The position numbers were made by a program, and so were the translations under genes. DNA of 64,000 nt. Origin: an uncultured Bacilli bacterium (GTDB lineage: Bacteria; Bacillota_I; Bacilli_A; RF39; UBA660). Of this stretch, positions 1,250 through 39,799 are shown piece after piece; within the stretch, counting starts at the first letter, position 1; every line of letters starts with the position of its first letter. The notes beneath the pieces are model-generated. The model made no database searches and was not told where the DNA came from. It saw only the letters and a program-made list of their open reading frames with translations. Location of the stretch: the NCBI GenBank assembly GCA_934096405.1, contig CAKOLW010000002.1:16754-80753 (forward strand). The letters are read 5' to 3'.

Positions 1250-2794
1250 TTAACAATTTGAGTTAACTTCATCCACTATATATGGATTAGTTGGTGTCCC
1301 TGTTCCAGTTACCAATACACAAGAAGCTAATGAAATTGCGGGACGCGCAACATAATATGCATAATCGGAACGACCATCACTTAAATTTCCTGAATTAGCA
1401 GTACCGCCAGCTAGCCATATTGTAGCCCCAGAGCCAGTCCATCTACGTGGAGATAGTAACCAAATCCAACTATTACCGGTTATTGAATTTCCTTCACTAT
1501 TTAAATAATACCATGCATAAGGACTAGTTAATTTTGTGCCAGTTTTTCCACCAGCAAAGACAAGTTCATCTGCAGTTGCTAATGCTATTGGATACTTAAG
1601 TTTACCATTTCCTCCACCTGTTGTGCTTGCACTAAATTTATCAGCAATTGCTTGCACACTTTCAAATAAACCACCACTTGGATTTGTTCCACATTTGTAT
1701 GATGGGGTTTTATTATCAACTAGTCTTGTGTAACTGCCATAATATACTACTTTACTAGTTACATATTCATACTTTGAGTCATAACTTCTATCATTACAAT
1801 ATATTGCAGTTTTACTTATATATTTATCATAATTTGTTAGTAATTTATTCTCGTACCATGTATCTATATATTTTTTAATTGTACTATCATTTTCATTTGT
1901 TCTATTATTATCTATAGACCCACTTGTTCCATACATATAGCCTTCATATACTAAATCATTATATTCAGTATTAAATTTTGTACTTCCTAGGTAACCTTTT
2001 TCTGTATCTGTACTTGTTCCAGAATATAGAAGTCTTACGCCTCCATCTTCATTAGTACGAATTATTCTCCAGTAAAATCCTCCAAAGTATACCCAGTTAT
2101 TTGTTGTATTTCCCGAATAATAATATACATCACTTCCATCTTCTGTTTTATTTGTTTTATATATTGTTCCTGTTGTTGTTTCTGTATTTGTTACACTAAA
2201 ATCTGTTCTTTCACTTACAGTTGGATTATCTCTTAGTATTGCACTTGAAACCAAAACTCCTGGTTCGTCTGTTCCTTCTTCAATGAATATCTTACCTGAT
2301 ACTTCTTTTTCCATATCAGCACTTTGGTCTACATCATCATCACTTATGTACTTCAATTCTAATGTATAATTATGTTTTGTATTAGAGGCTATTGCAACAC
2401 TATATTTAATAATTATATCTTCTAGTGTAGTTGACTTTGGTATATCTTCATAGTCAATCATACTATATCCACCATCTGTACTTGTTATTTTATATACTAA
2501 ATAGCCTTTAGTTACAAATGTGTTTATTAAATCTTTAAATACTAAATTATATTTATATTCATAGTTTGTTTTATTCTCTACACTAAATGTTTTAGTTATA
2601 CTCCATCCTGGTTCTATATTTGTTCCTTCTATATCATCCCCGTTGTCAAAAACTATTTTCAAATCATTTGTATCAACAGTTATTTTCTTTTTATCTCCTC
2701 TTACTATGGAACTAAAGTAAGCATAGGTTAAACCTAATAACAAAAATAATACTAAGCAAATTCCATATATTAAAAACTTCTTTTCTTTTGTCAC
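1250..2794 (-). CDS. Secreted protein, family member 1. It has a SipW-type signal peptide, a TasA/camelysin-like N-domain and a C-terminal lectin-like (DUF6273/DUF1566-like) domain.
   Basis: The ORF track gives 1250..2833 from a TTG that lies inside the promoter. The likely start is GTG 2794, 9 nt after AGGAGA. The N-terminus KKFLIYGICLVLFLLLGLTYAYFS matches the (T)(F/Y)AYFS SipW-class signal. Other motifs: IEPGWSITKTFSVEN; YYYSGNTTNNWVYFGGFYWRIIRTNEDG; YPIALATADELVFAGG; WIWLLSPRRW; YYVARPAISL. The protein ends in C-x21-C-COOH. Confidence 0.85.
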   Translation of the reverse strand: MTKEKKFLIYGICLVLFLLLGLTYAYFSSIVRGDKKKITVDTNDLKIVFDNGDDIEGTNIEPGWSITKTFSVENKTNYEYKYNLVFKDLINTFVTKGYLVYKITSTDGGYSMIDYEDIPKSTTLEDIIIKYSVAIASNTKHNYTLELKYISDDDVDQSADMEKEVSGKIFIEEGTDEPGVLVSSAILRDNPTVSERTDFSVTNTETTTGTIYKTNKTEDGSDVYYYSGNTTNNWVYFGGFYWRIIRTNEDGGVRLLYSGTSTDTEKGYLGSTKFNTEYNDLVYEGYMYGTSGSIDNNRTNENDSTIKKYIDTWYENKLLTNYDKYISKTAIYCNDRSYDSKYEYVTSKVVYYGSYTRLVDNKTPSYKCGTNPSGGLFESVQAIADKFSASTTGGGNGKLKYPIALATADELVFAGGKTGTKLTSPYAWYYLNSEGNSITGNSWIWLLSPRRWTGSGATIWLAGGTANSGNLSDGRSDYAYYVARPAISLASCVLVTGTGTPTNPYIVDEVNSNC

Positions 2795-2823
2795 CTTTAC
2801 AACTCTCCTATCTTTACATTTTA

Positions 2824-2852
2824 ATTTTATCAAAAAAAGTAGTTTGTTACAA
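2824..2852 (-). promoter_or_regulatory. Sigma-A-type promoter TTGTAA-N17-TAAAAT with an extended -10 TG, for family member 1
   Basis: The minus strand reads ..TTGTAAcaaactactttttttGaTAAAATtaaa. The same module occurs at 39771-39799 and a related one at 24973-25001. Confidence 0.55.
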
Positions 2853-20313: not shown

Positions 20314-22998
20314 CTATGCAGATAGAAGACTTTTTAATTCGACAACATTAGAAAACTCACTATAATACGTTGTTCCATCACTAATAGCGTATTTTCTTAC
20401 TTTAAAATATAAATGTCCACCACGTTTTACACTTACATAATTTTGGTTGTTTTCCCACTCTTCTTTTGTTATTGTTTTATTTAAAGTATATTTTCCATCT
20501 TCTGATGTTGAGCTATATACTTCTATACCTGTAGTATAATCTAAATTATCTATCAAAATTTGCATTCTTTGTTCATTTTCATCACCATTCTGACCAGATT
20601 CTGTTATAACTGGTGTTGAAAGGGAACTATCTACATCTAATACGTTTGAAAATTCACTCATATAATATGTATTTTCATCTATGGCAATATATTTTCTTAC
20701 TTTAAAATATAAGTGTTGGCCACTTGGTGCAGAGACTTCAAATGTATTGTTTTCATCTATGTCTTCTTTTTTTATTGTTTTATATAAAGTATATTCTCCG
20801 TCTTCAGATGTTGAACTATATACTTCAATACCTGTTGCTTCAGTTAATAAATTAACACATATTCTTAAAGCATTTCCTGCGTCAGAGCCTTCCCAACCTG
20901 CTTCAGTAATTGTTGGATGACCCATTTCTGCTTTCACTTCTGAATATTCACTATACACTTTATTTCCTTCGGTATTTATTATATATGCTCTTGCTGCATA
21001 TGTCTTTCCATAATTATCTTTTACATCAACTATAGTTTTGAATTCTTGAGAACCTTCAGAAGTTTTTATTAATGCATATGTTTCTCCTGTTTTTTCATAT
21101 ATTTCATAACCGTGTACTTCATTACCTGATTCACCATATATTTGACCATATAAAGTAATTTTATTGTCTTTTATATCAGAATTTATAAATGGTTGTGGTA
21201 CAGGATTTGTTAAAGTTAAGTAATTAGAATAATCACTATATACTTTTTCTCCTCTAGAATTTAATGCATAAACCCTTAATGTATATATTTCAGTTACACC
21301 TTTTTCAATAGTAACTTCTTTATTTAAAATTCCTTCATTTGTTTCAACTAAATTAGGTGCGTTATCAATTACTTTGTATAATTCATAACCGTCTATTAAA
21401 TCAGTTGCTCCTTCTTCTGAATAAGCTCCTTCATAATCAAATCTTAATATTGGTTTATCTATAGTACCTAAAGGATTTGATAATGTTGGTGTTGAAACTT
21501 TATTAACAAGTTCAACAAAATTTGAAAATTCACTATAATATGTTGTTCCATCACTAATAGCATATTTTCTTACCTTAAAATAAAGGTGTTCTCCTTTTTG
21601 TGCACTTACAGTATATGGATGACTTTCCCATTCTTCTTTAGTTATTGTATTTAATAAAGTATATTCTGCGTTTGCTGATGTTGAACTATATACTTCTATA
21701 CCACTGGTGTAATCTAAATTGTCTATTGTTAATATTATTGATTTTACGCCTTCACTTTCACCTTCACCTGTTACATTTAAAACTGGTGTTGAAAGAGAAT
21801 TATTTACATTTAATACATTTGAAAATTCACTAACATAATATGTATTTTCATCTATAGCAATATATTTTCTTACTTTATAATATAAGTGTTGGCCACTTGA
21901 TGCAGAAACTTCAAAAGTATTATTACTACTAATATCTTCTTTTTTTATTGTTTTATATAAAGTATATTCTCCATCTTCTGATGTTGAACTATATACTTCT
22001 ATACCTGTTGCTTCTGTTATTGAATTAATGCATAATAGAATTCCTTGAGGTTCATCGCTTCCACTGGCACCTGCTGTTGTAATTGTTGGATAACTCATTT
22101 CTGCTTTTACTTCTGAATAATCACTATATACTTTGTTTCCATCTGAATCTAATATGTAAGTTCTTGCTGCATATGTCTTTCCATAATTACCTACTAAGTC
22201 CACACTTGTTTGAAAGTTTTGATGAATATTATCTGTATGTATCACATTATAAGTATTACCAACTTTTTCATATACTTCATTTCCAGACATAGTACCGATT
22301 GCTTCTCCACCTATATTTATTTTATTGTTTTCAATATAAACAAACATATTTGGTGCGGCTATAGAATTTGTTAAAGTTAAGTAATCAGAATAATCACTAT
22401 ATACTTTTTCACCTTTTGCATTTATTGCATATACCCTTACTTTGTAAGATTTAGTAGTTCCAATACTAAGTGAAATTTCTTTGTTTAAAATACCTTCTTT
22501 TGTTTCAATTAATTGTAATTTATTAGCAATTAATTCATATAATTCGTAACCATTGATTAAATCAGTTGCTCCTTCTTTTGAATAAGCTTCTTCATAATCA
22601 AATCTTAATATAGGTTTATCTATAGTACCCAATGGATTAGATAATGTTGGTGTATCTAGATAAACATCATTATTTTTATAATTAATCTCAAAAGTTGTTG
22701 GTACATCTACTAATTCATTTGTTAATGCATTGAACCAAAGTCCTCTTGCATTTTTATAGTAAATAATCATATCTTCAAGATTATTACTATCTATTGTTTT
22801 AGCAGCTAACATAATAACATCAGTTGTTAAATAACCTTTATAGTTATTTGTTGTTTCTCTTGTAAACATACTTTTACCAATTATGTATGTTGAATTAGAA
22901 ATATCATTTGTATCTATTTCTCCAGCATTTAGATTATTAATATTTGCAAATGTAAATATTCCAATTAAGAGAACAATGCTACTTAATATTTTCTTCAT
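20314..22998 (-). CDS. Secreted repeat-rich surface protein (894 aa) made of FN3/Ig-like modules
   Basis: Signal peptide MKKILSSIVLLIGIFTFANINNLNA. The modules repeat motifs of the type GIEVYSSTSEDGEYTLYKTI..HLYFKVRKY..YYSEFSN. Confidence 0.85.
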   Translation of the reverse strand: MKKILSSIVLLIGIFTFANINNLNAGEIDTNDISNSTYIIGKSMFTRETTNNYKGYLTTDVIMLAAKTIDSNNLEDMIIYYKNARGLWFNALTNELVDVPTTFEINYKNNDVYLDTPTLSNPLGTIDKPILRFDYEEAYSKEGATDLINGYELYELIANKLQLIETKEGILNKEISLSIGTTKSYKVRVYAINAKGEKVYSDYSDYLTLTNSIAAPNMFVYIENNKINIGGEAIGTMSGNEVYEKVGNTYNVIHTDNIHQNFQTSVDLVGNYGKTYAARTYILDSDGNKVYSDYSEVKAEMSYPTITTAGASGSDEPQGILLCINSITEATGIEVYSSTSEDGEYTLYKTIKKEDISSNNTFEVSASSGQHLYYKVRKYIAIDENTYYVSEFSNVLNVNNSLSTPVLNVTGEGESEGVKSIILTIDNLDYTSGIEVYSSTSANAEYTLLNTITKEEWESHPYTVSAQKGEHLYFKVRKYAISDGTTYYSEFSNFVELVNKVSTPTLSNPLGTIDKPILRFDYEGAYSEEGATDLIDGYELYKVIDNAPNLVETNEGILNKEVTIEKGVTEIYTLRVYALNSRGEKVYSDYSNYLTLTNPVPQPFINSDIKDNKITLYGQIYGESGNEVHGYEIYEKTGETYALIKTSEGSQEFKTIVDVKDNYGKTYAARAYIINTEGNKVYSEYSEVKAEMGHPTITEAGWEGSDAGNALRICVNLLTEATGIEVYSSTSEDGEYTLYKTIKKEDIDENNTFEVSAPSGQHLYFKVRKYIAIDENTYYMSEFSNVLDVDSSLSTPVITESGQNGDENEQRMQILIDNLDYTTGIEVYSSTSEDGKYTLNKTITKEEWENNQNYVSVKRGGHLYFKVRKYAISDGTTYYSEFSNVVELKSLLSA
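20320..22662 (-). repeat. Internal tandem duplication of about 1.17 kb (about 390 aa) inside the surface-protein gene
   Basis: PTLSNPLGTIDKPILRFDYE(E/G)AYS(K/E)EGATDLI(N/D)GYELY.. starts at about aa 113 and again at about aa 503. The DNA segments at 22611-22660 and 21441-21490 are nearly identical. Confidence 0.85.
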
Positions 22999-23008
22999 AT
23001 TTTTCCTC

Positions 23009-23320
23009 CTATTTTATTATAACTTGTGCTTCTACTTTTTTATCATTATTTAGTTTAACTATTAATGTTTTAATATCTTTTATATCAGTATATGAAGCAA
23101 TTGGATTAGTACCATAACATAATATTGTTCCGTCTTCATATCTGATTTCTTTAAATTCTATTTCTTTATCATTTTCATATACAATTAATTTTCTTTCTGG
23201 TGAGTATGCATCTACTGTTTCAAAATTAATTTTATAAGTTTTTTTGTTATAAAATAATAGTACTAACACTATAGCTATTATTAAAACTATAGGTATTATA
23301 ATTATTAATCTCTTTTTCAT
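23009..23320 (-). CDS. Small membrane-anchored protein sharing the C-terminal domain of the upstream 489-aa protein
   Basis: TM anchor followed by YKINFETVDAYSPERKLIVYENDKEIEFKEIRYEDGTILCYGTN... This aligns with YTISRRKTDSYSPDNLLTVYEEGSVISVQRIEYIDGGIICFGNN.. at the end of 23322-24791. Confidence 0.75.
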   Translation of the reverse strand: MKKRLIIIIPIVLIIAIVLVLLFYNKKTYKINFETVDAYSPERKLIVYENDKEIEFKEIRYEDGTILCYGTNPIASYTDIKDIKTLIVKLNNDKKVEAQVIIK

Positions 23321-23321
23321 A

Positions 23322-24791
23322 TTAATTAATTGTAGCAGTTACTTTTATACCACTATTTAGTACTACTACTACTCTTGTCACTCCTAATAAATCAGTATCA
23401 GATGCAGATAAGTTATTTCCAAAACATATTATACCACCATCTATGTATTCTATTCTTTGAACAGATATTACACTTCCTTCTTCATAAACTGTTAATAAGT
23501 TATCTGGTGAATATGAATCAGTTTTTCTTCTAGAAATTGTATATGATTTTTGTACCCAACTTGCTGTTAAAGTAATATTGCTTGTTACAGGATTGTTAAA
23601 ATTGTAAGCACTTCCATTTAATAACCATCCATTAAATTTGTACCCTTCTTTTGTTGGTGATGCTGGTTGAGTAACTTTATTTCCTTCAGTAATAGTTTGT
23701 GAACCGACACTAGTTCCACCATCTGAATTAAATGTAACTGTATATTTTGATAAAGGTTGCCATTTAGCAGTTAGTGTTATATTTTTTGTTATTCCAATAT
23801 TAAAGTCGTATGTTTTTCCATCTAATTGCCATTCTACAAACTTATATCCTTCTTTTGCAGGATTACTTGGTTTTGTTGCTTTATTTCCTTCTGTAATTGT
23901 TTGTGAGTTTACACTACTTCCACCATCTGAATTGAATGTAACTGTGTATTTATTTGCTATTTTGCTCCAACTTGCTACTAGAGTAATGTTTTTAGTTACT
24001 ATAGTATTAAAGTCATATGATTTTCCGTCTAATGTCCATCCTTCAAATGTGTATCCGCTTCTGGTAGGATCTTTAGGCTTACTAGCTTTGTTTCCTTCAA
24101 TAACACTTTGTGAACTAATTAAAGACCCTCCGTTACTATTAAATGATACTGAGTATTTTTTCTTAGTTGGTGTTGTTGGATTATTTGGTTTTGTTGTATT
24201 ACCATTATTTCCATTGTTTCCACTATTGCCATTATTATTTGTGTTATTTCCATTTGTTTGTTTTACTTCTTCCCATTTAGCTTTTAATTTTAGGTTAGTA
24301 GTAACTTCAGTATCAAAGTTGTAAGTTTTTCCATCCAATTGCCATTCTTTGAACACATAATTTGCTTTAACTGGATCTACTGGCTTTACTATTTTTTGAC
24401 CTTTTTCTATTACTTGGTTTGCTATAGTTGTTCCACCATCAGTGTCAAATTCAACTACATAAGTTTTAACGTCTTCTCTTACTTTTTCCCACTTAGCAAT
24501 TAATGTTAAATTTGATGTAACAGCTGAATTAAAGTCATATGTATTACCATTATTAGTCCATTCAACAAATATATAACCTTCTTTTGTAGGATTAGTTGGC
24601 TTTGTAACTTTTTCTCCTTCTTTTATTTTTTGATCACTTATTGTACTTCCACCACCAGTATTGAAAGTGACATTATAAGTTACAGGTACTTCTTCTTTAT
24701 TCATTGTTTTTACAATGACTCCTATAATACCGGCTATAACAACAACTACTATAGCACCGAGTATATAATATAGGCTTTTTTTGTTTTCCAT
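23322..24791 (-). CDS. Membrane-anchored surface protein with six Listeria-Bacteroides (Flg_new/InlB B-type) repeats
   Basis: A repeat of about 70 aa recurs, of the form YTVTFNSDGGSSV.SQTITEGNKATKP..P.KEGYKFVEWQLDGKTYDF....TKNITLTAKW. The linker is Asn/Gly-rich. Confidence 0.8.
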   Translation of the reverse strand: MENKKSLYYILGAIVVVVIAGIIGVIVKTMNKEEVPVTYNVTFNTGGGSTISDQKIKEGEKVTKPTNPTKEGYIFVEWTNNGNTYDFNSAVTSNLTLIAKWEKVREDVKTYVVEFDTDGGTTIANQVIEKGQKIVKPVDPVKANYVFKEWQLDGKTYNFDTEVTTNLKLKAKWEEVKQTNGNNTNNNGNSGNNGNNGNTTKPNNPTTPTKKKYSVSFNSNGGSLISSQSVIEGNKASKPKDPTRSGYTFEGWTLDGKSYDFNTIVTKNITLVASWSKIANKYTVTFNSDGGSSVNSQTITEGNKATKPSNPAKEGYKFVEWQLDGKTYDFNIGITKNITLTAKWQPLSKYTVTFNSDGGTSVGSQTITEGNKVTQPASPTKEGYKFNGWLLNGSAYNFNNPVTSNITLTASWVQKSYTISRRKTDSYSPDNLLTVYEEGSVISVQRIEYIDGGIICFGNNLSASDTDLLGVTRVVVVLNSGIKVTATIN

Positions 24792-24972
24792 CTTTTTCCT
24801 TCCTTTCTGAGCACTAAAAAAATTATAGACTGGTACCTATGATTTTAAAATAACAAAAAACTATGAGAGTTATTTTTAATAACCCCCCCCGAAATTCGTA
24901 CCAAGTTTGGTACTTAATTCAGAGTTGATTAGTACTATCATAGTTTTCATGCTCCTTTTATTTTATGCTTTA
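24792..24972 (-). promoter_or_regulatory. Conserved 5' leader, copy A (candidate cis-regulatory RNA or uORF element)
   Basis: 24809-24983 aligns with 39605-39781. A 41-nt core is identical apart from one C/T: GAATTAAGTACCAAACTTGGTACGAATTT(C/T)GGGGGGGGTTA. It contains the palindrome GTACCAAACTTGGTAC (24898-24913), a G8 run (24883-24890), a weak hairpin plus T-run, and AGTGCTC just before the main RBS. Confidence 0.6.
24876..24941 (-). CDS. Candidate leader mini-ORF A (21 aa, or 24 aa from ATG 24950)
   Basis: GGAG lies 10 nt upstream of the ATG. Sequence: MIVLINSELSTKLGTNFGGGY*. The G8 run encodes GGG. Confidence 0.35.
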   Translation of the reverse strand: MIVLINSELSTKLGTNFGGGY

Positions 24973-30412: not shown

Positions 30413-31075
30413 TTATGCATTTGTATCATTTTCTGTATCCCAAGTTACTGTGTCATCTGTAACCATTTTTGCTACTTCTTTACCATCTATTTTGTAAACA
30501 CCTATTACTCTCCACATTATACCACTATAGTAAAGATAGTTATCTGGATTGTTACAATTTGTATCATTAGCGCAGTAAACGCATTCCATCTTTTCTACTT
30601 TTTGATTTTCATCAGTACACTTTAAATCAGTCTTAACTTTTCCTACTAAATCAGTATCAGTAGTTGAAGCTTGTTCACTACCCCATATTGCTATGTATGC
30701 ATCATTTGAATACTTTATTAATATTTCTTGATTATTTAAACTTTGATTATTCGTAGGATCAATAACACATCCTTTGTTAGTTTTTTCTGTTTCAGCATCT
30801 CCACACTTTCCTGAACCATTAGCAATTTCAGAATTAACATACCCATTTTCTACTAAATTATATACAAATATTTTTTCTCCACTAGGTATATTTTTATCTT
30901 TAGCATATAACTCAGCTGCAACTAATATTATGTCTTTTTTACTTTCTAATAATCTTTCATTGGATCTTTTTCTTATATTTATTATACTAGGTATAGATAT
31001 AGCTAGTATTATTCCTATTATTGCAATTACTACTAATATTTCAGTAATAGTAAAACCTTTCTTATTATTAATCAT
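30413..31075 (-). CDS. Type IV pilin/pseudopilin-like protein (prepilin N-terminal methylation motif), orphan
   Basis: MINNKKGFTITEILVVIAIIGIILAISIPS has the G|FTxxE motif. The C-terminal segment NPDNYLYYSGIMWRVIGVYKIDGKEV resembles the YYYSG..W..WRIIR..DG motif of the secreted family. Confidence 0.8.
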   Translation of the reverse strand: MINNKKGFTITEILVVIAIIGIILAISIPSIINIRKRSNERLLESKKDIILVAAELYAKDKNIPSGEKIFVYNLVENGYVNSEIANGSGKCGDAETEKTNKGCVIDPTNNQSLNNQEILIKYSNDAYIAIWGSEQASTTDTDLVGKVKTDLKCTDENQKVEKMECVYCANDTNCNNPDNYLYYSGIMWRVIGVYKIDGKEVAKMVTDDTVTWDTENDTNA

Positions 31076-35150: not shown

Positions 35151-36746
35151 TTAGCATGTTGAACCTTGTTCATCCACTACATAAGGATTTTCTGGAGTTC
35201 CTGCTCCTGTCACTTTTACACATTTATCTAAAGATATTACTGGTCTTACTTTACCATTTTGTGCACTAATTGTATAGTTATATAAACCACCTAGTCTATT
35301 AGAACCATCTACATACCATACATTTGAAGTTTTTCCATTCCAAAATGAAGGTGACATTACCCACCACCAACTAGTGCCTGTTATACTTTTTCCTTCACTA
35401 TTTGTAGAATAGTATAAATATGGTCCATCTGGATAATTCATAAATACACCACCGGCATATGCTAATTCATCTGCGCTTATTAAGGCTATTGGATAAGTTA
35501 ATTTGCCATTACCATTATTGTTACCACTTACATTAAATTTATCTGCAATTGATTGTGTACTTTCAAATAATCCACCACTTGTATTACCTCCACATTTATA
35601 TGTAGGGCTTTTAGATTTATAAAGTCTTTCTCTAGCTCCGTAAAAGAATGAAGTATTTGAATTGTTTGACCACGTTCCTTCAGTAATACTTCTATCATTA
35701 CAATATATTGCATCTTTACTTATATATTTATCATAACTAGTCAATAAATGTGTTGAATACCAATTATCTATATATTCTTTTATAGTACTGCTGTTGGTAT
35801 TTGAACGATTATCTTCATGACTAGTATTACCTCCATACATATATCCAGCATATCTTGATTCACTATTAACACTATTAAAAGCAGAATTTCCTATATAACC
35901 AGTTGTTGTACTAGGGTCATTTCCAGCATACAATAATCTTATACTTCCATCTTCATTTATTCTTACTATTCTCCAATATATATCATCTCCAGATTTCCAT
36001 AAATTTTCTTCTGATGTATCATCAGTTGAATATTTACCAAACTTAACCCAGTTACTATTTGTATTACCAGAATAATAGTATACATTACTATTATCTTCTG
36101 TTTTATTTGTTTTATATATTGTTCCTGTTGTACTTTCTATATTTATTGTACTAAAGTTAGTTCTTTCACTAATTGTTGAATTATCTTTTAATATTGCTTC
36201 AGTTAATGTACGAGTTGTGTAGTCACTACTTGGTTCAATATAAATATTACCACTTAATGTTTTTTCCATATCATCTGATTGATCAATATAGTTATCATTA
36301 ATATATTTCATTTCAATTGTGTAATCATGAATTTCATTTGGTAATAAATTTATACTATATTTTATTGTAGAATCTCTTTTTATATTTGCCTTAGGTATAT
36401 CTAAGTAATCTGTCATATTGTATCCATTGTTACTACTTGTTATTTTATATACTAAGTATCCTTTAGTTACAAATGTATTTATTAAATTTTTAAAAACTAA
36501 ATTATATTGATAATTATAGTTTGTTTTGTTTTCTACACTAAATGTTTTAGTTACACTCCACCCTGGTTCTATATCTATTCCATCTATTTTTTCTCCATTA
36601 TTAAATATTATTTTTAATTCATTAGTATTAACAGTAATTTTTTTCTTTTCTCCTTCTATTCTAGTAGCAAAATAAGCATATGTTAATCCAATTAATATAA
36701 ATAATATTAAACATATTCCATATATTAAATATTTCTTTTCTTTCAT
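35151..36746 (-). CDS. Secreted protein, family member 2 (SipW-type signal, TasA-like N-domain, lectin-like C-domain)
   Basis: KKYLIYGICLILFILIGLTYAYFATRIEGEKK; IEPGWSVTKTFSVEN; YYYSGNTNSNWVKFG..IYWRIVRINEDG; YPIALISADELAYAGG; WWWVMSPSFW; KVRPVISL. The protein ends in C-x21-C-COOH. The start is ATG 36746 or TTG 36764. Confidence 0.85.
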   Translation of the reverse strand: MKEKKYLIYGICLILFILIGLTYAYFATRIEGEKKKITVNTNELKIIFNNGEKIDGIDIEPGWSVTKTFSVENKTNYNYQYNLVFKNLINTFVTKGYLVYKITSSNNGYNMTDYLDIPKANIKRDSTIKYSINLLPNEIHDYTIEMKYINDNYIDQSDDMEKTLSGNIYIEPSSDYTTRTLTEAILKDNSTISERTNFSTINIESTTGTIYKTNKTEDNSNVYYYSGNTNSNWVKFGKYSTDDTSEENLWKSGDDIYWRIVRINEDGSIRLLYAGNDPSTTTGYIGNSAFNSVNSESRYAGYMYGGNTSHEDNRSNTNSSTIKEYIDNWYSTHLLTSYDKYISKDAIYCNDRSITEGTWSNNSNTSFFYGARERLYKSKSPTYKCGGNTSGGLFESTQSIADKFNVSGNNNGNGKLTYPIALISADELAYAGGVFMNYPDGPYLYYSTNSEGKSITGTSWWWVMSPSFWNGKTSNVWYVDGSNRLGGLYNYTISAQNGKVRPVISLDKCVKVTGAGTPENPYVVDEQGSTC

Positions 36747-36847: not shown

Positions 36848-39586
36848 TCAACAAGTACTAGCACTTTCATCTATTACATATGGATTATCAGCAGTTCCTT
36901 TTCCTGTTACTTTGACACAAGAGTTTAGAGAAATGACAGGACGAACAGCATCCGCGCCGCTCACGCGTCCGCCGCCCAAGCCCGCATCGCCAGAATCCCA
37001 ATAACACTCGCTCGCATAGCTACCAAACCAGTCGAAAGGCGACAAGGACCACCAATAATTTGATACTTTAGTTCCAGAACTATTGCTTATAAACCATGCA
37101 TATGGTGTACTCATACTTGCATACCATGCCGTTCCTCCGGCAAAAGCCATTTCGTCAGCAGTCATTAATGCTACAGGGTAGTCTAACCTTGCACTTGTGT
37201 TTTCCACACTAAATGCATCTCTTATATCACTGCAATTATATGTTGGTGTTTTATCTGTTATTAATCTTTTATGTGACGCAAAATCAAATCCTGTACTTGA
37301 TGTTGTATATGAGCCTTCTGTTTCTTCACTTCTATCATTACAATATATGGCACTTGTACTTAAGTATTTTGTATAATTAGTTAAATTGTTTTGATACCAT
37401 GTATCTATATATGTTTTTATTGTACTATCATATGTATTATTTCTTATTGTATCGAGGGAAGTATCTTCTCCATATTTATAGCCTACATATTTTGGACTAT
37501 TATAGTTTGTATTAAATGCACTTGTTCCTATATTTCCACTTGTTGTATCATGACTTGTTCCTACATAAAGTAGTCTTATACTTCCATCATGATTTGTTCT
37601 TATTATTCTCCAGTAGAATCCCCCAAATAATACCCAGTTATTTGTTGTATTGCCAGCATAATAGTATACTTCTTGTGGTGTACTAGTTATTCCTGCTATA
37701 CTTTCTGTTGAAGTAAACAATGTTCCTGTCGTGGTTGAATTAAAAGGACTACTAAAAGATGTTCTAGATGAAATTGTTGGATTATCTTGTAATATTATTT
37801 CTGCTAAAGTTGATGATGCTTTTTTTCTTAAAATAACTGTACATTCTTGATATTCTATTGGATTTGATATTTTTACTCCAGTACTTGTTATTGTACCAAC
37901 TGCAGTTCCTGTACAACTAACATTTGAATATTCTAATTTATAACCTTCATTTGGCGAAATAATAAATGATGTCTCTTGATTTTTATTTACTACAGCGTAA
38001 TCAGTTTTAGCTTTACCATTTTGTACTTTTAATACTATTATACTTTCATCTTTAGTGTTATCTGAAGAATTATAGTTTACTTCATCAATTTCATAAGGAT
38101 TATTTGCTGTTGCATCTCCTGATTTAATTCTAGCATTTGATGATAGTGATATAACTGGACGAATTACACGTTCTCCATTAACATAAGAATTTGTCATATA
38201 ACCTGGATTACTACTTCCACGTACAGTAAAATTAAGTGCATATGATGTACTCCAATAGTATGGAGTTAACGTCCACCAGAAATTACTTCCTACAATAGAA
38301 TTTCCTTCACTATTTGTATAATACCATGCATAAGGACTAGTTAAATCTTTTCCATTTAATCCACCTGCGAATACTATTTCATCTGCTGTCATTAATGCAA
38401 TTGGGTAGTCTAGATCTCCATTTCCTCCACCACTTATACTTGCACTAAATTTGTCATCATTTGACTGAGTGCTTTCAAGTAATCCATTGCTTGTATTTGC
38501 TCCACATTTATATGATGGACTAATAGTCTTGACAAGTGTGTAATAATCTCCAAAATGAAATCCACTTGTTAGAGAATATGCTTCACTACTTATACTTCTA
38601 TCACTACAATATATTGCTTCTTTACTTATGAATTTATCATAATTAGTTAGCAGATTGTTTTGATACCAATTATCTATGACTTGTTTTATTGTACTTGAAT
38701 TAGAATTTAATCTATTATTTGATAACGAACCGCTTGTTCCATACATATAGCCAACATACATTGGATCATTTGCAGTTGAATTAAATGCAGTATTACCAAT
38801 ATAACCTTCTGTTGTATTATGATTAGTACCTGCATATAAAAGTCTTACACTTCCATCTTCATTAGTACGTATTATTCTCCAAAAATAGCCTCCAAATTTA
38901 ATCCAATTATTTGTTGTATTTCCTGAATAATAATATATATCACTTCTATCTTCTGTTTTATTTGTTTTATATATTGTTCCTGTTGTATCATTGTTATTAG
39001 TTGTATTAAAGCTTGTTCTTTCACTTACTGTTGGATTATCTCTTAAAATTGCTTGTACTAAAGATAACTCTTTTGTTCCTTCTTTTATCATAAATGTTCC
39101 AGATAATTTTTTACCCATATCAGCTGATTGATCTTCTTCTGTATCTTTGTAAATCAATGATATTGTATAGTCATGACTATCTTTAGGATTAATTGTTATA
39201 TAGTGTGCTAAGGTTACATCTGTTTTTTCATTAGTTTTTGGCAAATCTATATATTCTTCCATATTGAATCCATTTGTAGATGTTATCTTATATTGTAAGT
39301 ATCCTTCAGTTACAAATGTATTTAGTAAATCTTTTACATATATATCATAAGTTTCTGTTTCTTTAGATGTACTTTTAACTTTAAAATTAATGCTTGTATT
39401 CCATCCAGGTTCAATAGATACTGCTGGTATTGTTTTTTCTCCTTCGTATTTTATATATACACCAGTAGTTTTTACAGCAAATTCTTTATCATTTCCGAAA
39501 ATTCTTGGCTTAAAATATGCTAAAGTTACTCCTATTGTAATTATTAATATACTTACTACTAATATTGTTAAATACTTTTTCCTCAT
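36848..39586 (-). CDS. Secreted protein, family member 3 (912 aa), with one TasA-like N-domain followed by two lectin-like domains
   Basis: LTILVVSILIITIGVTLAYFKPRIFG; IEPGWNTSINFKV. Domain 1: YYYSGNTTNNWIKFGGYFWRIIRTNEDG..FWWTLTPYYW..VIRPVISL. Domain 2: YYYAGNTTNNWVLFGGFYWRIIRTNHDG..YWWSLSPFDW..AVRPVISL. The protein ends in C-x21-C-COOH. Confidence 0.88.
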   Translation of the reverse strand: MRKKYLTILVVSILIITIGVTLAYFKPRIFGNDKEFAVKTTGVYIKYEGEKTIPAVSIEPGWNTSINFKVKSTSKETETYDIYVKDLLNTFVTEGYLQYKITSTNGFNMEEYIDLPKTNEKTDVTLAHYITINPKDSHDYTISLIYKDTEEDQSADMGKKLSGTFMIKEGTKELSLVQAILRDNPTVSERTSFNTTNNNDTTGTIYKTNKTEDRSDIYYYSGNTTNNWIKFGGYFWRIIRTNEDGSVRLLYAGTNHNTTEGYIGNTAFNSTANDPMYVGYMYGTSGSLSNNRLNSNSSTIKQVIDNWYQNNLLTNYDKFISKEAIYCSDRSISSEAYSLTSGFHFGDYYTLVKTISPSYKCGANTSNGLLESTQSNDDKFSASISGGGNGDLDYPIALMTADEIVFAGGLNGKDLTSPYAWYYTNSEGNSIVGSNFWWTLTPYYWSTSYALNFTVRGSSNPGYMTNSYVNGERVIRPVISLSSNARIKSGDATANNPYEIDEVNYNSSDNTKDESIIVLKVQNGKAKTDYAVVNKNQETSFIISPNEGYKLEYSNVSCTGTAVGTITSTGVKISNPIEYQECTVILRKKASSTLAEIILQDNPTISSRTSFSSPFNSTTTGTLFTSTESIAGITSTPQEVYYYAGNTTNNWVLFGGFYWRIIRTNHDGSIRLLYVGTSHDTTSGNIGTSAFNTNYNSPKYVGYKYGEDTSLDTIRNNTYDSTIKTYIDTWYQNNLTNYTKYLSTSAIYCNDRSEETEGSYTTSSTGFDFASHKRLITDKTPTYNCSDIRDAFSVENTSARLDYPVALMTADEMAFAGGTAWYASMSTPYAWFISNSSGTKVSNYWWSLSPFDWFGSYASECYWDSGDAGLGGGRVSGADAVRPVISLNSCVKVTGKGTADNPYVIDESASTC

Positions 39587-39770
39587 TGCTACCTCCGCTT
39601 TTTAGAGCACTAAAAAACTCATAGACTGGTGCCTATGAATTTAATATAACGAAAAAACTATGGGTGTTATTTATTTTTAACCCCCCCCAAAATTCGTACC
39701 AAGTTTGGTACTTAATTCAAAGAGAATTATTCTTTCCATAGTTCTGTACTCCTCTACTTTTTACTCTTTA
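39587..39770 (-). promoter_or_regulatory. Conserved 5' leader, copy B
   Basis: See copy A. The palindrome is at 39696-39711, the G8 run at 39681-39688, the hairpin CATAGgcaccagtCTATG plus T6 follows, and AGTGCTC lies before the RBS GCGGAGG. Confidence 0.6.
39677..39739 (-). CDS. Candidate leader mini-ORF B (20 aa)
   Basis: GGAG lies 9 nt upstream of the ATG. Sequence: MERIILFELSTKLGTNFGGG*. Confidence 0.35.
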   Translation of the reverse strand: MERIILFELSTKLGTNFGGG

Positions 39771-39799
39771 ATTTTATCAAAAAAAGTAGTCTATTACAA
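39771..39799 (-). promoter_or_regulatory. Promoter of the leader-B operon (TTGTAA-N17-TAAAAT, extended -10), embedded in the terminator hairpin of the upstream gene
   Basis: The minus strand reads aaagtggTTGTAAtagactactttttttGaTAAAATtaaag. This is the same terminator-plus-promoter module as 2824-2859. Confidence 0.55.

Follow-up and report, generated by a model that had tools for sequence, protein, structure and literature searches.

We analyzed a 64,000-nucleotide (nt) stretch of a contig from an uncultured, low-GC Bacilli bacterium of the gut (CAKOLW010000002.1; the whole stretch is hereafter the window), for which an earlier reading, the original prediction, had proposed three genes that share one architecture. 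The three open reading frames (ORFs) are present, all on the minus strand, and their products have two modules, an N-terminal base and a C-terminal head. Gene 1 (1250..2794) encodes P0001, a 514-amino-acid (aa) protein with a GTG start that comprises a leader, a TasA-like sandwich, and one DUF6273-type head; its AlphaFold2 (AF2) model has a predicted local distance difference test (pLDDT) score of 90.7. Gene 2 (35151..36746) encodes P0002 (531 aa) which, as judged from the ORF, its translation, and BLASTP, is built like P0001. Gene 3 (36848..39586), read on the same evidence, encodes the 912-aa P0003, in which the leader and sandwich (39071-39586, minus) are followed by head 1 (38069-39067, minus), a small linker domain with a Cys pair (37808-38068, minus), and head 2 (36851-37807, minus). 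The linker gave a weak match to Flg_new_2 (E 0.039). Gene 3 is followed after 101 nt by gene 2, and the gap contains nothing that resembles a terminator.

By BLASTP, P0001 is 57% identical to P0002 over the full length, 53% identical to P0003 across residues 2-506, and 48% identical to the second head of P0003 (residues 594-912). The three genes are paralogues with 48-57% identity, and the proposal that gene 3 carries two C-terminal domains stands. Public gene calls for the same contig list identical products of 912, 531, and 514 aa, and the 514-aa call sits in the same place, downstream of ftsZ, in eight samples. The GTG at 2794 is the correct start of gene 1: the longer ORF, which opens with TTG, is overlapped by a TGn-extended -10 promoter (2824-2852).

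The head of P0001 spans residues 178-514 (1253..2263, minus) and was modeled by AF2 with a pLDDT of 95.7 and a predicted template modeling score (pTM) of 0.94. A Foldseek search of the head against the PDB returned 9qa6 as the sole strong match (E 1.1e-5, all 337 columns). This structure is that of the Thomasclavelia ramosa IgA peptidase (ThomasA), of which residues 31-322 form a DUF6273 domain whose function is not known and which the enzyme does not need in order to cleave IgA (PMC12402451). In BFVD, the best named fold matches were phage DUF6273 proteins (E 4e-4 to 1e-3). At the sequence level, 14 of 67 diverse family members match Pfam DUF6273 at E<=0.01 (best 5.6e-9), and two homologues, P0009 (28.5 bits) and P0052 (24.1 bits), exceed the gathering score of that model (PF19789; 23.5 bits). 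The landmark motifs that had been noted, YYYSGN..NW..FGG.YWRIIRTNEDGS.RLLY, YPIAL..ADE..FAGG, WW..SP, and VRPxISL, are all present. Both the fold of the modeled head and the homologues above the Pfam cut-off support assignment of the head to DUF6273. The original prediction had also named DUF1566, a link that finds hardly any support: none of the 67 members matches DUF1566 in Pfam, and DUF1566 proteins in BFVD match the head fold only at E 0.13-0.32. A head profile searched against PDB sequences gave nothing relevant and no sequence match to 9QA6, and a single-sequence PDB search returned chance antibody matches only.

In gut phages, DUF6273 has been reported to be C-type-lectin-like and to be targeted by diversity-generating retroelements (DGRs) (PMC10743442). 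Like ThomasA, the DGR targets, and the gut-phage tentaclins, the window proteins carry the motifs WR(I/V)(I/L)...DG and P(I/V)AL..ADE, and the fold match extends over the whole head. However, the Pfam model has 172 positions and the window head is twice as long. The carriers also differ, as known DUF6273 domains are mounted on a peptidase, an Ig stalk, or a phage tail, whereas here the mount is a TasA-like base.

The head ends in a hairpin that holds Cys492 and Cys514 (1253..1321, minus). The arrangement that had been noted, C-x21-C with the second Cys as the last residue, holds in all three window proteins by hand count. Among 208 terminal heads from the family, the Cys occur as a pair in 113 and are absent from 95, and a lone Cys was never found. 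The pair is most often spaced x21 (61 of 113), and in just 39 of the 113 is the second Cys the very last residue. Internal heads mostly (110 of 118) lack the pair. This all-or-none pattern fits a structural disulfide on the terminal hairpin, whereas a strict terminal-residue (sorting) signal was rejected on the 39-of-113 count. A second pair, C333 and C368, is invariant.

The base begins with a leader, residues 1-25 of P0001 (2720..2794, minus), which on the basis of its motif and of an hhalign alignment to the TasA signal consists of a KEKK n-region, a variable hydrophobic core, and the residues G-L-T-Y-A. It was predicted that each protein would carry an N-terminal anchor ending in L(T)(Y/L)AYF, and all three do: GLTYAYFS, GLTYAYFA, and GVTLAYFK. 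Next come a candidate donor strand (residues 26-40, YFSSIVRGDKKKITV; 2675..2719, minus), proposed from the alignment to the TasA donor strand 28-38, and a TasA-like module of nine beta-strands (residues 41-175; 2270..2674, minus), delineated by DSSP analysis of the AF2 model, by Foldseek, and by stand-alone homologues. The full-length model itself shows a helix at residues 3-32, a low-confidence stretch at residues 28-34, the nine-strand sandwich at residues 38-173, and the head. The low-confidence stretch, with pLDDT below 50, falls within the candidate donor strand.

Relatedness of the base to TasA is suggested by both fold and alignment. In a Foldseek search of the full P0001 model against the PDB, the best match was the TasA fibre (8aur_A, E 3.8e-4, probability 1.0), with CBM-like sandwiches close behind. 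In the hhalign alignment to TasA (the sequence used is 100% identical to 8aur_A), residues 1-79 of the two proteins run collinearly, and the cleavage site and the LxPG..TK.F..EN strand are part of this region. In it, GLTYA/YF of P0001 lies on GGTWA/AF of TasA (the slash marks the cleavage site), so that TYA/YF is opposite TWA/AF, and NIEPGWSITKTFSVENKTN sits on NLKPGDKLTKDFQFENNGS. P0001 residues F27, I30, and V40 face TasA F29, I32, and F39, the hydrophobic residues of the TasA donor strand (PMC9674648). The motif IEPGWSxTKTFSVENK, which had been proposed for all three proteins, occurs in two of them and is diverged in the third (IEPGWNTSINFKVKS). A base profile searched against PDB sequences gave nothing relevant.

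A search with the base alone recovered stand-alone homologues of 160-180 aa. One of these, P0452, is 44% identical to the base (E 7.6e-28) and passes the Peptidase_M73 model (PF12389, cut-off 22.5 bits) at 35.0 bits; it also passes the NCBIfam model for SipW-dependent signals, TIGR04088 (23.5 bits against a cut-off of 19). Two more distant homologues, P0462 and P0463 (E about 1e-14), pass Peptidase_M73 at 25.9 and 24.2 bits and match TIGR04090 (the BsaA family) and NF046066 weakly. Because these three intermediates pass the Peptidase_M73 cut-off, the base is probably related, transitively, to TasA/camelysin. The TasA/camelysin and SipW assignments that had been proposed are therefore supported only indirectly, through intermediates and collinear motifs, and not by the scores of the window proteins themselves, which are given below.

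The leader motif is a family trait. The pattern [ST]x[AS][YF][FY] was found in 197 of 270 relatives, and in family leaders the h-region is the most variable segment and T-x-A-Y-F the most conserved, with I31, G33, K36, and I38 conserved as well. In 1.16 Mb of related loci, one SipW-type peptidase gene was found (locus L058, 10720-11484), which scores 95.2 bits on TIGR02228 (cut-off 51.85 bits) and also matches the SipW model NF046067. This gene directly follows two C-terminal fragments of family genes (L058, 9861-11484). Its homologues occupy the same position, typA-queH-sipW, in two more family-carrying lineages (L087, 10001-11940; L089 and L090, 7474-10654). Since this synteny is kept in three related lineages, SipW is a conserved chromosomal gene of the clade, and it is unlinked to most family copies. 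In L087, sipW is followed by a gene for a 163-aa anchored protein and then by one for a 238-aa head-less protein with a SYAIF leader, an arrangement that resembles tapA-sipW-tasA. The 238-aa protein is not detectably similar to the N-terminal domain of the window proteins except in the last strands.

The family is large. The family search gave 6960 matches among 8000 candidates scored, and in a library clustered at 50% identity, 4516 representatives matched at E<=1e-3 and 410 below 1e-30, far beyond chance. A scan of species-representative genomes, which did not return the window's own genome, yielded 569 relatives with a best identity of 65%. The relatives are uncultured Bacilli represented by metagenome-assembled genomes (MAGs) from human (Hadza, Nepal, Brazil) and rabbit guts, Clostridium sp. 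CAG:628, UBA11492, and UMGS1658. Genomes commonly have at least ten copies, which follow housekeeping genes as single genes or as pairs (ftsZ in the case of gene 1, tuf and rpmF in others). In other samples, contigs of the same species (L093-L098) break off time and again a few hundred bases inside gene 1. Short-read assembly therefore seems to fail at the paralogue family, so that MAGs probably understate its copy numbers.

Relatives also show what else the two modules can be joined to. P0189, P0197, P0211, P0227, and P0235 combine the head with a type IV prepilin leader, and N_methyl matches occur in 5 of the 67 family members. The fusion to bona fide prepilin leaders suggests that the head is cargo for display on filaments. 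Elsewhere the head sits on plain N-terminal anchors that lack the AYF motif (e.g., P0134, P0150, and P0226). Conversely, the 176-aa P0421, found in 29 assembly blocks, is a base without a head that ends exactly at the base/head junction, and its gene lies 300 nt upstream of one for a 507-aa protein, apparently a headed family member (L099 and L100, 10001-12368). Cargo shared with pilins and the presence of head-less partners together point to filament display. Modular type IV pilins thus share the head in relatives, whereas the three window genes are without a prepilin motif, and the sole pilin of the window has just a short motif that is like the start of the head. That pilin gene (30413-31075, minus) is isolated and matches N_methyl at E 5e-7; the motif lies in its last 40 residues (YLYYSG..WRVIG..DGK), which resemble the first strands of the head. 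BLAST detected no significant similarity between this pilin and the head.

One head of the window carries an unusual patch. Over the WW.SP...VRP segment of head 2 of gene 3, 117 nt (36935..37051, minus) are rich in GC and poor in adenine (A 0.10, gene mean 0.41; GC 0.67, gene mean 0.31), and their 3' end bears a hairpin (36941-36964). By its composition and position, the patch looks like a DGR variable region (VR), and a VR-like patch at the C-terminal face is thus a likeness to the known DGR targets. A DGR inside the window was rejected, as window scans found no reverse-transcriptase motif and no template-like repeat. The other three heads of the window have no such patch; gene 1 is merely mildly GC-enriched at the equivalent head position (1295-1474, minus; A 0.20-0.25, GC 0.42-0.50). 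This stretch does not align closely with the patch of gene 3 and may thus be either the decayed remnant of an old variable region or a product of chance, and DNA alignment gives no support for a template shared by the two patches.

The 5' flanks of the genes are also related. Upstream of gene 1 lies a cassette of a terminator tail and a TGn-extended -10 promoter (2820..2852, minus; TTGTAA-17-TAAAAT with TG). An identical 24-mer occurs at 2820-2843 before gene 1 and at 39767-39790 before gene 3, where 0.01 matches would be expected by chance, and the family appears to carry this 24-nt cassette along as a portable 5' flank. As read from the sequence, the leader of gene 3 (39612..39799, minus) consists of the promoter cassette, a small ORF (sORF; 39677-39739), and a hairpin with a T-run (39612-39638). 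The sORF has 20 codons (MERIILFELSTKLGTNFGGG) and ends in a run of eight G (39681-39688) ahead of the hairpin. Gene 1 has the same cassette without the sORF and poly-G leader. The only other G8 run of the window (24883-24890) precedes a different, repeat-rich surface-protein operon (20314-24791).

We give an even chance to the reading that the three proteins are SipW-processed, variable surface adhesins built on a TasA-type module that would assemble into fibres. Here, the Sec leader would end in a SipW-class site (T-Y-A/Y-F), which in P0001 places the cut after A25. The leader would probably be cleaved there by a signal peptidase of the SipW type (archaeal/ER-type), whose gene would lie in another part of the genome. 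The TasA/BsaA-like sandwich of about 150 residues would act as a stalk or polymerization module, with the freed N-terminal strand (about residues 26-40) entering the sandwich of a neighboring subunit by donor-strand exchange. Head-less paralogues of 175 aa, as found in relatives, could be plain shaft units, and the last, still uncleaved subunit could tether the assembly in the membrane. The head of 335 residues, putatively C-type-lectin-like and with two probable disulfides, would bind a putative glycan or protein ligand on mucus, host cells, or other microbes. Contact with the ligand would most likely be made by the WW.SP...VRP segment, where gene 3 holds the DGR-type patch. Diversity could arise from paralogy, from duplication of the head within a protein, from writing by a DGR, and from the poly-G leader before the gene 3 - gene 2 pair.

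Several results weigh against this reading. The window leaders miss the TIGR04088 cut-off (P0001 14.3 bits, P0003 11.3 bits), and the window proteins also miss that of Peptidase_M73 (P0001 18.4 bits, P0002 15.9 bits, P0003 no match), the match covering residues 13-77 only. The hhalign probability for the base profile against TasA is only 17%, and the TMt of the TasA fold match is low (0.31). The window heads give no match to Pfam DUF6273 even at E<=1, and the sole solved homologue of the head, the N-terminal domain of ThomasA, has no known function and can be spared by its enzyme. Head-less subunits were seen in relatives and none in the window. Six-frame motif scans found no SipW-like ORF in the window, as the original prediction had stated, and within 10 kb of 79 related loci sipW was found at L058 only. 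Finally, the AF2 model runs one continuous helix over residues 3-32, straight through TYAYF, which would fit an uncleaved anchor as well.

This last observation leads to a possible, if rather improbable, alternative in which the proteins are monomeric and membrane anchored: the helix would stay uncleaved as a type II anchor, the sandwich would be a passive stalk, and the head would be a receptor or adhesin at the membrane or wall, with no fibre. The continuous helix, the sub-threshold TIGR04088 scores, the lack of sipW in the window, and the many relatives that bear the head on plain anchors without AYF are all consistent with such an arrangement. However, the [ST]xA[YF]F motif and the I.G..K.I.V segment that follows it are more conserved than the hydrophobic core, which would be unexpected for a mere anchor. 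In addition, homologues pass the SipW-signal model, the SipW gene is conserved in relatives, and a membrane-tethered protein of 500 aa would hardly clear a Gram-positive wall.

An unlikely variant of the fibre reading is that headed proteins are tip or side adhesins only, docking via the sandwich or the N-terminal strand on a shaft of head-less TasA-like subunits, by analogy with the two-domain tip adhesins of the chaperone-usher systems. Head-less homologues of 170-180 aa are widespread and can directly precede a headed gene, the sipW operon of one relative encodes a head-less subunit, and bulky heads of 335 aa, two of them in P0003, might hinder a homopolymer. On the other hand, the window shows no head-less gene, and the searches recovered far more headed than head-less copies. 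It is very improbable that the proteins are secreted enzymes or toxin-like effectors with a catalytic head: although several polar residues are invariant (the D-E in TADE, plus R, W, and Cys) and the nearest solved homologue is part of a peptidase, the ThomasA domain is not needed for catalysis, no enzyme family was matched by sequence or fold, and targeting by DGRs and fusion to pilins are typical of binding domains.

Extending the fibre reading from the window to its clade is a tentative step that we consider doubtful as a whole. In this scenario, gut Bacilli with small genomes (CAG-628 / UBA11492-type) would make a Gram-positive adhesive fibre that requires neither sortase nor chaperone, in which a single SipW would process TasA-type donor-strand subunits that carry, or are capped by, swappable, lectin-like DUF6273 heads diversifiable by DGRs, with a shaft of head-less paralogues and with heads shared with type IV pili, so that two unrelated kinds of filament would display a single binding repertoire.

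The closest known systems to the base are TasA/SipW of Bacillus subtilis (tapA-sipW-tasA; 8AUR, 5OF1) and BsaA of Clostridium perfringens (sipW-bsaA-bsaB-bsaC), in which, as here, the leader ends x-A/x-F. The likeness comprises the aligned donor-strand hydrophobics, the LxPG..TK.F..EN strand, and a beta-sandwich that, among PDB structures, matches the TasA fibre best, as well as a dedicated SipW-type peptidase and paralogous small subunits in relatives. The differences are also clear. Mature TasA has 234 aa, whereas the base has about 150 aa, and the window sequences fall below the family cut-offs. The C-terminus of TasA forms a subunit interface, whereas here a 335-aa head, or two, is fused to it. 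The known proteins belong to a sipW operon and the window genes are scattered behind housekeeping genes, with polymerization of their products a prediction. A further comparison can be made with FimH-type adhesins of chaperone-usher pili, which combine a donor-strand-type Ig-like module with a lectin-like binding domain. This comparison is a working analogy only, as there is no homology, the domain order is reversed, there is no chaperone or usher, and the present host is Gram-positive.

The novelty of the architecture lies in the combination of two known kinds of module, the TasA-like base and the DUF6273 head, and our literature search found no paper on such a fusion. TasA-type fibres are known as plain matrix scaffolds; subunits with large variable heads, if the fibre reading is true, would make for a Gram-positive adhesive appendage of new design. 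The family numbers thousands of 50%-identity clusters in abundant, uncultured bacteria of human and animal guts. DUF6273, which an IgA protease and phage DGR targets also contain, would gain a cellular role, and paralogy, DGR activity, and poly-G phase switching would be tied to one surface structure.

Directly downstream of gene 1 lies a gene for a sigma factor (2-1186, minus) with matches to regions 2 and 4 and a long C-terminal extension. In Bacillus, spoIIGA-sigE come after ftsZ, and the sigma-factor gene of the window occupies that place.

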